From a virus, in the IMG/VR virus record IMGVR_UViG_3300045911_000143, positions 1 through 64,000 of that record: a stretch of DNA of 64,000 nt; one strand, given 5' to 3'. Below, piece by piece: positions 2,009 to 63,660 of this stretch. Positions within the stretch are counted from its first letter, which is position 1. Every line of letters starts with the position of its first letter. Position numbers and translations under genes: made by a program. The notes below the pieces were generated by a model. That model was not told the DNA's origin. It did no database searches and worked only from the letters and a program-made list of their open reading frames with translations.

Positions 2009-3174
2009 GATTTAACAATTTCTGGATATACGTTTTCTATAATAGATTCACTAGAATATATGTCTGAATTTTTATATACTAGAAAATCAACATCATTTAA
2101 AACAATTTCGCCTAGATCAATTATTTTATCTTTTATTTTATCAATAAAAGAATATGGCGATTTAGATAATAACAATATTAAACCCTTTTGTTGTAAAGGT
2201 TCTAATACACCAGTTCCATAATCTATTCTAGTAAATTTTATTGTAGTTCCTTCTGGTATATCATCAAATTTTAATTCGGCGTTATCAAAAGTATCGAAGT
2301 CCAAAATGCTTTTTGTTCTAATATAGTAACTTTTTCTTTTATTAAGTAGTATCTCGTCCCAATCTGACCAAGGCGATCCTTGGTTTTTTGGAAACAATGT
2401 TTCCAAACATATAATCGGTTGATCATTTGGTTTCTGTATAATAACTTCTAAACGTATTTCAGCATTCTTTAAGTCGTATGGTAAAGATGGCATTTCAAAC
2501 CAAAATTCCGTACTCGGTGGTGAATTATTTAAATCGCTGGTATGTTGTTTTTGACAACTATATCTTTTACCTTGATAGGTAATAACTTTACTTAATGTAT
2601 AAGATACCCCGGTTTGCCATTCTTGTATTGTATAATCAACAAAGTTGAGTTTCGTCAAAAACTTAGGTATTGCAAAAGTAAATATTCCATTATTTGTGAT
2701 TTTAAACAAGTTTTCTTGAGCCTGTACTCTATCAACAAACTTTTCAGTAGAGCTTCTAGATAAGCAATGTATTTTTCCTCTTCTAGCAGTTAAAAATATA
2801 ATTTTTAAAGTATTGTTATCTATTATCTGTACATTATAATTTGAAGTTTTAAGTTGAGTATATACCCCTTCTTGATTTAAATCATAAATGGTTATAGATG
2901 GAAAACAGTTCAGATTGTGTTCAACTGTCCATTCAGAAGACGGAGATTTAATTTCTGTTTGAAAAAAGTTCAATCTTTGAGAGTAGTCTTCTAGACTACT
3001 AACAAATGGTGGTACTGTTTCTCTTAGATTGTCTGGATTTCTGGATATTTTATATAACTTTCCACGACATCCATCTGTTATAATACATTTAGAAAATACG
3101 GTCAACCCTCGTAAATTCTCAACCTTTTCAATTTCTCGCAGACAGGTGTCACATTTATATTTTATAGTAGCCAT
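2005..3174 (-). CDS. Probable virion protein with internal CBM5/12-like carbohydrate-binding module and N-terminal Cys motif
   Basis: WQTGVSYTLSKVITYQGKRYSCQKQHTS fits the CBM5/12 pattern; CDTC...C..C at N-terminus; late-promoter-like AATAAATA just upstream. Confidence 0.65.
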   Translation of the reverse strand: MATIKYKCDTCLREIEKVENLRGLTVFSKCIITDGCRGKLYKISRNPDNLRETVPPFVSSLEDYSQRLNFFQTEIKSPSSEWTVEHNLNCFPSITIYDLNQEGVYTQLKTSNYNVQIIDNNTLKIIFLTARRGKIHCLSRSSTEKFVDRVQAQENLFKITNNGIFTFAIPKFLTKLNFVDYTIQEWQTGVSYTLSKVITYQGKRYSCQKQHTSDLNNSPPSTEFWFEMPSLPYDLKNAEIRLEVIIQKPNDQPIICLETLFPKNQGSPWSDWDEILLNKRKSYYIRTKSILDFDTFDNAELKFDDIPEGTTIKFTRIDYGTGVLEPLQQKGLILLLSKSPYSFIDKIKDKIIDLGEIVLNDVDFLVYKNSDIYSSESIIENVYPEIVKS

Positions 3175-3330
3175 AATACTTTTTTTAAGTATTTATTGCC
3201 AGTGTTTCTGGATTAAATTATCATTATAGTTTTTAGGTTTAAGTTGGCCGTGAAAACATAATATACACAATTATTCATTATTCTTTTATAATCTCTAATG
3301 TATTATAGTTTAATACTAATAAATCGTATT

Positions 3331-39402: not shown

Positions 39403-39756
39403 AGCGTCGTCTCCGTTGATGGTGAAATCATTATCCGATATTAGCCTTTGGTTGTCAAGTGTCAATCGGCTATTTTTTGATCGTTTAAAGGCTTGACTAT
39501 CAGATTGGATGATGTATAATGCTTTACATGGTTAGGGCGGTAACGACAGCCCCGATCACAGCCCCGAAACGGGAACTTTGGCAACCTAGATTAATTGAGG
39601 GTAGGATGGTTTACCCCCGCGACGGCCCGTAAGAAAAATTGATGGTTGTAAACCAAACGAGCAAAAAATCCAGACCAAAGTTATGGTCTGGATTTTTTAA
39701 TTTACAGCATCCCGTCCGACCATCCCATTTTATCATATAATGGAATAGAATGCAAC

Positions 39757-39785
39757 AAAAAAGGGAGGCTTTTGCCTCCCTTTTG
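39757..39785. terminator. Bidirectional intrinsic terminator
   Basis: aaaaaagggaggc-tttt-gcctccctttt. Confidence 0.8.
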
Positions 39786-39959
39786 AGTTTGTTAGAATCC
39801 TTCCCCGTAAACGAACGCATCCTGATCCGCTGCACGCTCGGCGGCCAACCGATCCAGCCATTCGTGGTAGGCAATGTCGGATTCTAACATTTCAAGTTCT
39901 TCGTCGTTCATGGCTTCCTCCAGTTGGTGAAATCATTATATTACATCAACGCAGTTGAG

Positions 39960-53203: not shown

Positions 53204-53299
53204 TGTTCACTGGTGGGACTCGAACCCACATCGGAAGACTTTGTTCTCCCATGACATAACCTAAACTAAGGTTATCGCTTACCTTTTGCTACAGTGAAC
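53204..53299 (-). tRNA. Atypical tRNA-like element (8-bp acceptor, aberrant anticodon arm, long V arm)
   Basis: GTTCACTG/CAGTGAAC, canonical GTGGG-TTCGAGT-CCCAC T arm, hairpins ATAACCT/AGGTTAT and GGGAGA/TCTTCC. Confidence 0.6.
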
Positions 53300-53311: not shown

Positions 53312-53387
53312 TGGTAGGGCCACCCGGACTCGAACCGAGACTCAAGCGATTATGAGTCGCTGGCTTTAACCATTAAGCTATAGCCCT
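53312..53387 (-). tRNA. tRNA with CAT anticodon (Ile2-like)
   Basis: AGGGCTA/TGGCCCT-A-CCA; GCGACTCATAATCGC arm as in enterobacterial tRNA-Ile2. Confidence 0.9.
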
Positions 53388-60492: not shown

Positions 60493-60897
60493 TCAATAGA
60501 CCTTAAATTTGTTATGTTTCCAATATTTTATATTACCTTCTGTTATAGGATTTGAAAGGTGCATCTGTAAATTCAGGCGAAGTGCATTTTCGACACACTT
60601 CTTATTTAAGCCTTTGTTTCTAAAGGATTTTTGAGTGTATGAATGGATGTATCTATCTTTACCCATTTGCATGTCACCATCACCGTTGAAGAAATAACGG
60701 CTAAAGATGATAGTCCATGAACGAGCAACACCATCAATTTCAGCAATAGAAAGAATTAATTTAGACTCTGGATTGTTCTTATAATCCCTGAAACAGGGCC
60801 ACATCATACCATCTCTAAAATGAATCTTTTGTAATTGGGAGATGACACGCGGGGGGATGAACTGGCCGGGACGATAAACAACAAATTTGGTGTTCAT
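60493..60897 (-). CDS. GNAT-like acetyltransferase
   Basis: HSYTQKSFRNKGLNKK resembles acetyl-CoA binding motif A. Confidence 0.5.
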   Translation of the reverse strand: MNTKFVVYRPGQFIPPRVISQLQKIHFRDGMMWPCFRDYKNNPESKLILSIAEIDGVARSWTIIFSRYFFNGDGDMQMGKDRYIHSYTQKSFRNKGLNKKCVENALRLNLQMHLSNPITEGNIKYWKHNKFKVY

Positions 60898-61049
60898 GGA
60901 CAGTCCCCATTTTGATTGAGAGAAATGTAAGCCTGAGATTAAGACTTAACGCAGCAACCTTTCCGGTCATTATCCCACACTTGCAGGTGTAGGTTCTACC
61001 GTTATCCACGCACTCGTGTGCGTATTTGCCATACCTGCTCATTTATTTA

Positions 61050-61782
61050 AAGCGCGCGAGCTTATTGCGCTTGTCACCAATGACACTACTCATGGTTCTG
61101 TCTACCGCTTGCCTTGCGGGCAATAAGAGGACGCTAATCCCCTACGTGCGACTTTCCCACAACAATCTATCACCTTGCGAGTTCTAGACTGGCTTGATTC
61201 AGTTGCCTGTCAAGCATTAAGGTACTTTTCATCATTGGCCGGTGACAACTTTGCTATGTACTTATATACCATTCAAAGTTTTAATACCGCCTGAACTTGC
61301 GTGCCACCGTTGCTTCATAACCTTTTGGGCTACAAAATACAACACAAGTTCGTATCCGTTCATTGGCATTACTAGGATTGTCATTTTCGATCAAGCTGTT
61401 AACTTGACCTATTGACTGGATTACGCACTTGCCTGCCAAGACTCGCACTAAAATCCTACACCTTAGATAGTAAACTATGAAAGTTGCATCTACTAGAGGT
61501 TTGCTGCCTCAACAATTTCAGTTTTACCCTCAATTGCTTTCGTAGCATTCAGTCGTTTACCCCCTCACCCAACTCGGTAAGTGGATACCCCCTCTTTTGG
61601 AGAGGAATACATCCGGTGCTTTCTTGAATAGACCATATTGCTATGGCGAACGGGTTGGCGACCCATCCTTTATGCATATCACTATGCACTATCCTTGCAC
61701 TTAAAGAGTTGCCCCTTTAAGTGTGTCAAGCCAGACCTTTCGGTTTCGTTCCTTTATGGTGGAACTCATCAGTGGCTACCGT
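61050..61782 (-). ncRNA. Large structured ncRNA (GOLLD/ROOL-like)
   Basis: About 730 nt with no credible ORF, many GNRA-capped hairpins on the - strand, TTGACA(61816)-N16-TAAGAT promoter, adjacent to tRNAs. Confidence 0.7.
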
Positions 61783-62094
61783 TTAAACATCTTAACACAA
61801 ATTTATCGCTTGTCAACACTTATTAAAAAGAATTGGGATGGGCTACATCGTGATTATCAGCTTCATGGTTCGATGTTAGTTTCGCATTGTACCCCCATCC
61901 AGTACAAGCATAGCACATTCTCACTAGTGGACTACAGACAGGAACGTGCAACCATCTGTATATTTTTGAAACATGTAAAATTAACCTACATTTGATTCTA
62001 TTTATTCTAACATAAAGAGACAGTTTGTCAATTTTAATTAGAACAATTTTTCATAGAAAACAAAAAGAGACAATTCTGTGTTTTAAACGTAAAT

Positions 62095-62168
62095 TGGAGC
62101 GTCCTGTCAGAATCGAACTGACACCTTAAGATTGGAAGTCTTTGATTCTACCATTAAACTAAGGACGC
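62095..62168 (-). tRNA. tRNA-Gly(TCC)
   Basis: GCGTCCT/AGGACGC-T-CCA; AAGA-CTTCCAA-TCTT. Confidence 0.95.
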
Positions 62169-62215
62169 ACAAAACTATATATCAATTCAACAAAATCAGT
62201 ATAAACTTTCCCCTA

Positions 62216-62822
62216 TCACTTGTCAATATCTGGCATCACGGGTGGATCAGGGTGCCACCAAGGCACATCGTGTATATCACAAAACCCGGACCTACCATGA
62301 AAAGTTTGGTACTCTGCATCATAAGTGCCAATATACCAAATTTTAAACGGCGCAAAATAATAAAGAACCCGCTGACCATCTTTCGGTGGATTCTCAAGTG
62401 TCTTTTGAGGATTCCAATCAAACAAAACAGTCATTTGTATTCTCTTCTTGAACTAACCTTTAATAAAGGGCTTACGAAAGATGTTAAAGATTCTTATCAA
62501 TCCAGCCTGCAATATAAGAAAAAGATTTATGAGCAAAATCATTTAGAGAAATGAGCCTTTCCTCTATTGTGTCTCCACGATTATTAATTTTCCCCCACTT
62601 TATACAAGTCAATCCATTTGCTGCATACCATCTTGTAGATGGGGTGTCACCTGATTCAACTTTACCAGTCAAACACTTTTGCAAAACACCTAAGCAGCAA
62701 TAAGCATCGCTATCTTTATTGTATAAAGTACCAACGCGAGTCTGTTTATATTTACCGCTGCGCAATGCTTTGATCCACTTATTCTTAATCTTCTTGTCTA
62801 GTTTATTAGATGTATTTTTCAT
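62216..62822 (-). CDS. Two hypothetical ORFs (62216-62434, 62484-62822)
   Basis: The second has the widespread phage motif KWIKALRSGKYKQ...YCCLGVL...LNDF...F..IA. Confidence 0.75.
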
Positions 62823-62945
62823 GTGTTAACCTTAAGTTTGATTAAGTATAGACTATACTGAAATTATAGTCAAGTCAAGGTTGATGGAGTGTCACGGTAT
62901 CCAATATAGGGCTTGACCGTGCAATATTTTTATTGCAGTTTAATT

Positions 62946-63020
62946 TGGTCGGAGTGTGGTGAATCGAACACCAGAATTTCTCGCCCCAAACGAGACCCCG
63001 TACCACTCGGGAACACTCCG
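62946..63020 (-). tRNA. tRNA-Pro(TGG)
   Basis: CGGAGTG/CACTCCG-A-CCA; TCTCG-TTTGGGG-CGAGA. Confidence 0.93.
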
Positions 63021-63050
63021 ATTTATCTTTATTTATACTTACAGATATTT

Positions 63051-63127
63051 TGGTACAACCGACGAGATTCGAACTCGCAATCCCCAGATTGAAAGTCTGG
63101 TGGCTTAACCTGTTTGCCTACGGTTGT
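63051..63127 (-). tRNA. tRNA-Glu(TTC)
   Basis: ACAACCG/CGGTTGT-A-CCA; CCAGA-CTTTCAA-TCTGG. Confidence 0.92.
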
Positions 63128-63207
63128 ACTGTATGTGTACAGTATATATACATCTTTCATATTTGTCAAGGATGATGAAACTTTTCATTCTTGACGACTA
63201 ATTATCC

Positions 63208-63660
63208 TCAAATTTTTACAGTTTTATACTTTACTCCATTTTTATACCATGCTTTGCCACCATTAGGCCAAACTACGGCAGGTTCATCACCATCTCGGTG
63301 CAATACTCCGTATCTGTACCAACATTGTTTGCCATTAATGCATATAGACGCAACCTGATTATTCTCTCTATGCCGCAACCCAAATTTGTACCAGTGCATT
63401 TCTCCATTTGGAAATATAATGGAGGGTTCATCACTGTCACGATGGAGAACACCGTTATAGTAGTAGTACAGCCTGCCGTCAAAGTATTCTAATGCAGGTA
63501 AGTCATTGTTTCTATGGAACAATCCATCCTTAAACCAAGCCTTACTACCATTACTCCAGACTATTGCAGGTTCATCATCGTCACGATGAATTACGCCAAA
63601 TTCGTTACGGTATTCTACTCTTGAAAATTTACCGTCTTTGATTTCAACTTTCGTTAGCAT
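63208..63660 (-). CDS. HRD-repeat protein
   Basis: Five HRxxDxPA repeats. Confidence 0.88.
   Translation of the reverse strand: MLTKVEIKDGKFSRVEYRNEFGVIHRDDDEPAIVWSNGSKAWFKDGLFHRNNDLPALEYFDGRLYYYYNGVLHRDSDEPSIIFPNGEMHWYKFGLRHRENNQVASICINGKQCWYRYGVLHRDGDEPAVVWPNGGKAWYKNGVKYKTVKI

Follow-up and report, generated by a model that had tools for sequence, protein, structure and literature searches.

A predicted type I hammerhead ribozyme at the 5' end of a GOLLD RNA gene in a jumbo-phage fragment

Introduction

What does a stretch of about 730 nt encode when it lies among densely packed phage genes and carries its own promoter, yet holds no credible open reading frame (ORF)? The question was raised by an earlier note on positions 1 to 64,000 of the IMG/VR virus record IMGVR_UViG_3300045911_000143 (the whole 64,000-nt stretch is hereafter called the window). 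It placed a highly structured RNA gene at 61050-61782, read from the minus strand, and suggested either a member of the GOLLD class or a new giant RNA family. GOLLD itself is already known and was reportedly described by Weinberg and colleagues in 2009. It assembles into a homo-oligomeric RNA nanocage, its expression is higher during lytic growth, and to our knowledge few other natural RNAs form a protein-free cage larger than the ribosome.

The source DNA is a 78-kb viral contig, a jumbo-phage fragment with an estimated completeness of 21%. Its NrdA is nearest to those of the jumbo phages XacN1, RAS14/CM1, and Xoo-sp13 (58-60% identity) and, judged from sequence, the fragment that hosts the RNA gene is related to XacN1.

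Results

The RNA is a GOLLD with both of its domains

In an Rfam scan of the whole window, GOLLD (RF02032) was the only non-tRNA family that matched above a gathering score. The match, found at 60930-61352 in the model search that the earlier note had proposed, reached 189.5 bits (gathering score 150; E = 8e-52; reported composition bias 0.0) and spanned model positions 1-416 of 416. The idea of a GOLLD-like member was thereby borne out, and that of a new giant RNA family is rejected because the full model matches above its gathering score. Models for ROOL, RNase P, tmRNA, and group I/II introns gave no match at E ≤ 10 in 60700-63300 and none at E ≤ 1 in the whole window. According to the cmscan alignment, the 3' domain has the long-range pseudoknot (CCAAUGAU with a AUCAUUGG-type partner), the terminal UAAUCUCA loop, and UUAAUCUCA, with few non-canonical pairs. 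Its AU-rich linker is short (~61291-61240) and without a tRNA insert.

Published GOLLDs measure about 700-830 nt, of which about 400 nt belong to a variable 5' domain outside the Rfam model (PMC12286853, PMC12990946); GOLLD env-38, for example, has 833 nt, divided into residues 1-420 and 421-833 (PMC12286853). As the Rfam model comprises the 3' domain only, and given these published dimensions, we set the limits of the RNA at ~61733-60930. The predicted mature GOLLD would thus have 804 nt (61733 to ~60930), with a 5' domain of 381 nt and a 3' domain of 423 nt, and the whole RNA gene, promoter included, occupies 60930-61816 on the minus strand (Table 1). An RNA gene does lie within the limits first given for it, but it runs 120 nt further at the 3' side, to 60930, and the first ~50 nt of that interval (61782-61734) form a separate hammerhead outside the predicted mature large RNA.

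Table 1. Positions of the features of the GOLLD locus in the window
Feature	Position	Strand	Details and basis
Sigma-70-type promoter	61816-61789	-	-35 TTGACA 61816-61811, 16-nt spacer, -10 TAAGAT 61794-61789
Predicted type I hammerhead ribozyme	61777-61729 (61780 with pseudoknot strand)	-	Motif, fold, covariation
Candidate hammerhead pseudoknot strand	61780-61778	-	GGU
Hammerhead stem I	61777-61773 / 61733-61729	-	AGCCA/UGGCU, 5 bp
Hammerhead core	61772-61766	-	CUGAUGA
Hammerhead stem II	61765-61761 / 61752-61748	-	GUUCC/GGAAC, 5 bp; loop ACCAUAAA 61760-61753
Hammerhead GAA	61747-61745	-	
Hammerhead stem III	61744-61742 / 61737-61735	-	ACC/GGU, 3 bp; loop GAAA
Hammerhead C17	61734	-	
Predicted self-cleavage site	C17 61734 ^ U1.1 61733	-	Hammerhead consensus (cleavage 3' of H17)
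GOLLD variable 5' domain	61353-61733	-	381 nt; full-length alignment with XacN1 and RAS14
GOLLD conserved 3' domain	60930-61352	-	Rfam RF02032
134-aa ORF	60493-60897	-	Start 33 nt past GOLLD 3' end
tRNA-Gly(UCC)	62095-62168	-	ARAGORN; Rfam tRNA 64.1 bits; nearest of the upstream tRNA cluster
tRNA-Pro	62946-63020	-	ARAGORN
tRNA-Glu	63051-63127	-	ARAGORN

No Rfam model matches the 5' ~380 nt. The whole ~900 nt, including the promoter, aligns by BLAST and nhmmer to XacN1 (a Xanthomonas phage) and to RAS14 and CM1 (Stenotrophomonas phages), with 65-71% identity to XacN1 over ~900 nt; the stretch is unannotated in XacN1, and RAS14 and CM1 are identical to each other across the GOLLD cassette. An nhmmer profile search added the Xanthomonas phages BUDD and X1, which aligned along the entire profile, and further GOLLD loci, whose alignments began within the 5' domain, at profile position 314 or 394. 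Clade-specific DNA patterns taken from the 5' domain retrieved nothing further in IMG/VR. The domain contains a GCAA-capped 11-bp hairpin (61723-61698), a GUGA-capped hairpin, a CCAUA-GCAA-UAUGG hairpin (near 61646-61633), and a conserved CCAAAAG loop. Both GCAA hairpins had been listed before, together with TTGCCC-GCAA-GGCAA (near 61123-61109) and ACC-GAAA-GGT (61744-61735), and all four were found on the minus strand; the last, however, is stem III of the hammerhead and not a part of the giant RNA.

The high degree of structure that had been claimed is evident from the fold of an 809-nt RNA (-259.5 kcal/mol, z = -4.65), which none of 20 shuffles equalled. For covariation, the predicted mature RNAs of three lineages (window, XacN1, and RAS14) were aligned and a consensus fold was calculated by RNAalifold. 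Both sides change in 78 of its 208 pairs, and 93.5% of cells pair, a fraction that is flattering because these three sequences were also the source of the structure. In controls with partners shifted by 1-3 columns, 35-42% of cells pair and 6-16 pairs change both sides, and none of 500 shuffles reached the observed values, so that the contrast in compensatory changes is still large. Helices 2-15, in the 5' domain, carry their share of compensatory changes, and helices 16-34, in the 3' domain, covary with XacN1 and RAS14; covariation among homologs, which had been named as a test of the RNA gene, is therefore present. All covariation statistics given here draw on only 3-7 related sequences, and the structures were derived from or fitted to those sequences. 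A helix between the 5'-end GCUUGA and the 3'-terminal UCAGGC, which appeared both in RNAalifold and in single-sequence folds, was rejected because it shows no covariation, fails in IMG/VR contig L100 (see below), and competes with the terminal hairpin of the Rfam GOLLD consensus. The conserved loop of that terminal hairpin (L27) makes tertiary contacts in the cryo-EM structure (PMC12286853).

It is hardly credible that the locus represents a giant RNA family not described before, or else a protein-coding gene that has degraded (the latter named earlier as a refuting alternative): the 5' 380 nt do lack an Rfam match, but RF02032 is above its gathering score over the full model, 5' domains of GOLLD are known to be variable and to lie outside that model (PMC12286853, PMC12990946), no ORF of more than 62 aa overlaps 60930-61800, as the claim of an ORF-free stretch had implied, and the substitutions follow no codon pattern but compensate for each other within helices.

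Neighboring genes

The proximity to a tRNA cluster was correctly described, with three tRNA genes on the same strand within 1.4 kb upstream. An endolysin gene and a SAM-lyase-like gene are located downstream of GOLLD. No terminator was found between the GOLLD 3' end and the 134-aa ORF, which may be co-transcribed with GOLLD; the ORF belongs to no Pfam or PHROG family and has no counterpart adjoining the GOLLDs of related phages. We propose no protein partner, since no neighboring protein is common to the window and the GOLLD loci of its relatives.

Further elements were observed in the window. A second near-consensus promoter, TTGACA-16-TAGAAT (62031-62004, minus strand; 11/12 matches), drives ~175 ORF-free nt (61824-61998, minus strand) that end in a T-run directly before the GOLLD promoter. 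As an RNA gene, 61824-61998 is not convincing, its fold being like that of shuffles (z = 0.06). ARAGORN predicted a 96-nt tRNA-like gene with a 2-base 'anticodon' at 53204-53299 (minus strand), which adjoins tRNA-Met (53312-53387) and is absent from the Rfam tRNA matches. A weak PrrB/RsmZ-like match lies at 39755-39891 (minus strand; 26 bits vs. a cut-off of 44, E = 0.054).

Additional small RNA genes, or matches to them, lie around GOLLD in other loci. A tmRNA gene adjoins it upstream in XacN1 (L002:1601-2020; unannotated in the stretch shown) and downstream in DSS3_MAL1 (L035:2814-3230). Matches to the small SRP RNA (4.5S-like), just above the Rfam cut-off, occur in two unrelated IMG/VR phage contigs (L005:11344-11427 and L014:5261-5348), and in both some 470 nt separate the match from the GOLLD 3' domain that follows, which places it at or before the 5' domain. 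The RAS14 GOLLD cassette is flanked by unannotated, ORF-free stretches of ~400 nt (L031:1600-2010) and ~230 nt (2950-3180), in which no Rfam family was found at E ≤ 0.05.

The leader contains a canonical hammerhead motif

The promoter TTGACA-N16-TAAGAT had been recognized before and is indeed present (Table 1). It matches the consensus at 10 of 12 positions, has a TG-extended -10 element (TGtTAAGAT), and predicts a transcription start near 61782-61784. Equivalent promoters are found in the same place in XacN1 (TTGACA-17-TAATAT) and RAS14 (TTGACA-17-TATAAT). From the promoter end to hammerhead stem I, there are 11 nt in the window and 12-21 nt in XacN1, RAS14, and BUDD.

The sequence that follows the promoter fits a type I hammerhead ribozyme at the 5' end of GOLLD, for which cleavage is predicted. 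Its core is canonical throughout, comprising C3 U4 G5 A6 U7 G8 A9, G12 A13 A14, A15.1-U16.1 (A61744-U61735), and C17. A simple scanner found it to be the sole such motif on both strands of the 78-kb contig; none of 200 shuffles gave one, and the chance expectation is <0.005 per contig. Folded by itself, the leader has the hammerhead three-way junction, with stem I open, as its minimum-energy structure. The best Rfam match in a local search, Hammerhead_HH9, scored 26.6 bits (E = 9e-4) against a cut-off of 52, although the Rfam hammerhead cut-offs are database thresholds for particular sub-models and not a property of the ribozyme class. Covariance model R1 gave 53.5 bits (E = 9e-12), which is circular because the window sequence is part of its training alignment. 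The candidate pseudoknot between its strand and loop II (GGU/ACC) has only 3 bp in the window, where a rival pairing of equal length exists and about half of the shuffles do as well.

Hammerheads of related GOLLD loci covary

Hammerhead and GOLLD were found together in five lineages, i.e., the window, XacN1, RAS14/CM1, BUDD/X1, and L100 (IMGVR_UViG_3300001605_000031, found by a ribozyme-pattern scan of IMG/VR). A strict scanner misses relatives in which stem II has a bulge or 1-2 nt are inserted behind A9, and it was replaced by a lenient scanner (~0.8 chance matches per 78 kb) and by R1. The Rfam hammerhead models failed to detect the relatives with a long stem III; on the L100 copy, Hammerhead_1 scored 26 vs. 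a cut-off of 34. Across the lineages, stem I covaries (AGCCA/UGGCU, AACCA/UGGUU, AGACCA/UGGUCU, and UACCA/UGGUA), as does stem II (GUUCC/GGAAC, GGCCC/GGGCC, GCCCA/UGGGC, GU(C)GCC/GGCAC, and GUUCAG/CUGAAC), and stem III varies in size between 3 bp and a ~46-nt hairpin. Position N7 is U, C, or A, whereas the remaining core and GUC^UGG are invariant in all five. In an alignment of seven copies built with R1, and hence fitted to that model, 7 of the 14 stem pairs change both sides and 92.7% of cells pair, compared to 16-33% when partners are shifted. The pseudoknot, in which the 3-5 nt immediately preceding stem I pair with the first nucleotides of loop II, also covaries (CGGU/ACCG, AUCGG/CCGAU, GUCC/GGAC, and CGUCC/GGACG) and has 4-5 bp in the relatives. 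A pseudoknot of this kind occurs in about 40% of natural hammerheads and is required for their fast cleavage (Perreault et al. 2011, PMC3088659). With 1-2 extra U after A9, the copies of XacN1 and RAS14 are less certain to be active.

These data bear on the possibility that the GOLLD is genuine and its leader an inactive relic or a chance motif, in which case the mature RNA would keep a triphosphorylated leader. The sub-threshold scores of all Rfam hammerhead models, the short stem I, the insertions after A9 by which XacN1 and RAS14 depart from the consensus, and the fact that most GOLLDs do without a hammerhead would all fit. We nevertheless regard it as unlikely. The canonical core in the window and the low chance expectation speak against coincidence, and in five lineages the core and cleavage triplet were kept while three stems and the pseudoknot covaried, at a position relative to GOLLD that is fixed within 13 nt (see below); a relic would not keep compensatory changes.

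Linkage between hammerhead and GOLLD

In all five lineages, the R1 match ends 371-384 nt before the Rfam 3' domain begins. Co-occurrence was strict in three complete genomes, those of XacN1 (385 kb), RAS14 (320 kb), and BUDD (199 kb): each GOLLD copy had one adjacent R1 match, and there were no matches elsewhere, with two hammerhead-GOLLD copies in the terminal repeats of XacN1. Neither element was found in five related jumbo phages (Xoo-sp13, XbC2, Kaldavass, GAP32, and CBB), for which the XacN1, RAS14, and BUDD searches served as positive controls. About 30 other GOLLD loci, comprising 28 from IMG/VR (22 above the GOLLD cut-off), DSS3_MAL1, and the Sinorhizobium phage Phosso, had no convincing hammerhead and no Rfam ribozyme; in three of them, a tRNA lies ~360-520 nt upstream of the 3' domain. 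R1 matches at the GOLLD loci L014, L018, and L024 (E 0.3-2.4) were rejected, as C3 or other core bases were absent or the match was kilobases away. Conversely, 64 IMG/VR contigs fit the hammerhead pattern, and GOLLD was present in L100 but in none of the 62 others searched (L067 was left out). As the linkage is not universal in either direction, the hammerhead-led GOLLD is a clade-specific variant, and the ~30 loci without a hammerhead argue that a ribozyme-made 5' end is not a general GOLLD requirement.

Some of these loci have features of their own. The 63 pattern contigs other than L100 (L049, L092, L099, and others of L036-L099) carry type I hammerheads with CCA-CUGANGA ... GUC^UGG ends, several of them with 2-4 copies in 10 kb. 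The tRNA array of L100 contains three hammerheads, one between tRNAs (855-938), one leading GOLLD (1056-1117), and one directly past the GOLLD 3' end (1982-2043), and its GOLLD has a tRNA in the linker (1572-1638). Phosso (469 kb) harbors an unannotated GOLLD (186.6 bits; L101:1929-2397 = PV764938.1 33533-34001), likewise with a tRNA in the linker (L101:1994-2065), and no hammerhead was found upstream of it.

Such arrangements could mean that the hammerhead is active for a purpose other than shaping GOLLD, either freeing the ~49-nt leader as a functional small RNA or serving generally as an insulator by cutting transcripts that read through from upstream tRNA and sRNA units. A general punctuation role would fit the additional L100 hammerheads between tRNAs and past GOLLD, the multiple hammerheads that flank genes in prophages (Perreault et al., PMC3088659), and the lack of GOLLD in the 62 searched pattern contigs. 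We consider this quite improbable for the locus studied here. With a promoter 11-21 nt before the hammerhead in the window, XacN1, RAS14, and BUDD, most transcripts would start there and not upstream; in the three complete genomes, this type of hammerhead occurs nowhere except at GOLLD; and the leader sequence is unconserved outside the ribozyme.

Discussion

Taken together, it is very probable that promoter, hammerhead, and GOLLD constitute a self-contained jumbo-phage RNA gene cassette, in which the leader would remove itself by self-cleavage and GOLLD would assemble into a nanocage. Host RNA polymerase would start at the near-consensus promoter, at ~61782, and from there the primary transcript would just include the pseudoknot strand. 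The first ~49 nt would fold into the type I hammerhead, which would cut between C61734 and U61733 once the stem I partner strand UGGCU has been made. The triphosphorylated ~49-nt leader, ending in a 2',3'-cyclic phosphate, would be discarded, and the remaining ~804-nt GOLLD (61733 to ~60930) would begin with an exact 5'-OH at U61733. By family membership, this RNA would fold into a 5' cap and a 3' ring domain and self-assemble into an RNA-only nanocage during infection. In cryo-EM, GOLLD env-38 is a 14-mer and that of S. agalactiae a 12-mer (PMC12286853, PMC12990946), and cage assembly of the window GOLLD is expected by analogy.

Why the 5' end should be trimmed to a 5'-OH can be answered by a best guess: a homogeneous end may favor symmetric assembly, and the RNA may be insulated from promoter-proximal sequence and read-through transcripts. 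With the promoter adjacent, the ribozyme cannot serve for cutting the latter only. It would rather provide GOLLD with a uniform, triphosphate-free end that is independent of the start-site sequence needed by the promoter. A more far-reaching reading, which we offer tentatively and rather doubt, holds that the cassette is mobile and gained or lost as a unit among the tRNA islands of jumbo phages, that trimming is obligatory, and that the 5'-OH end is needed for nanocage closure or for escape from 5'-end-dependent host RNases. If so, GOLLD biogenesis would for the first time become accessible in cultured, tractable phage-host pairs (XacN1, RAS14, and BUDD).

No paper in the literature searched, which did not include the 2009 discovery paper and its supplement, describes a ribozyme attached to GOLLD. 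Both the full RNA and the ribozyme escape standard pipelines because the Rfam GOLLD model covers the 3' half only and the hammerhead models miss these copies. The hammerhead-led arrangement is a precise prediction on GOLLD maturation, although it does not reveal GOLLD function: the conserved front-end ribozyme predicts the mature 5' nucleotide (U61733 in the window) to single-base precision, and its conservation suggests that a trimmed, uniform end matters in this GOLLD clade. As the cassette is present, unannotated, in cultured Xanthomonas and Stenotrophomonas phages, ribozyme-dead mutants could be assayed for RNA accumulation, cage assembly, and phage fitness.

Comparison with known systems

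ROOL is likewise a large ornate RNA that is associated with phages and tRNAs and forms RNA-only cages, but its sequence and fold are unrelated, and its model gave no match at the locus or in the window at the thresholds given above. With GOLLD (RF02032), the window RNA shares the full conserved 3' domain, the long-range pseudoknot, the terminal UAAUCUCA loop, a length of ~800 nt in two domains with a short AU-rich linker, and the location in a phage genome beside tRNA genes; it differs in the promoter of its own and the hammerhead that stand in front of it. Its linker is without a tRNA, whereas those of L100 and Phosso bear one, and it belongs to an uncultured jumbo phage, with a hot spring or microbial mat as the source of the metagenome. 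A search for sequencing runs with this DNA listed only DNA metagenomes of such habitats, probably the source sample, and no RNA run.

The predicted ribozyme resembles bacterial and phage type I hammerheads (Perreault et al. 2011, PMC3088659; RF00163, clan CL00010) in its canonical 11-nt core, A15.1-U16.1, the GUC triplet, and three stems, of which stem I is the open one; the pseudoknot that would connect loop II with the tail past stem I is a candidate in the window. In contrast to these, it is located at the extreme 5' end of a promoter-driven non-coding RNA and not between protein genes, and it scores below the Rfam cut-offs; its relatives have a very long stem III and 1-2 nt inserted after A9. 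Further parallels are the unannotated GOLLD loci of XacN1, RAS14/CM1, and BUDD/X1. There, stem III is a long hairpin, compared to the minimal ACC-GAAA-GGU in the window, and what follows GOLLD also varies, with a tRNA in XacN1 and BUDD, a second hammerhead in L100, and an ORF in the window. The order of promoter, hammerhead, and GOLLD, the length of the 5' domain, and the position inside tRNA islands are the same in all of these phages.
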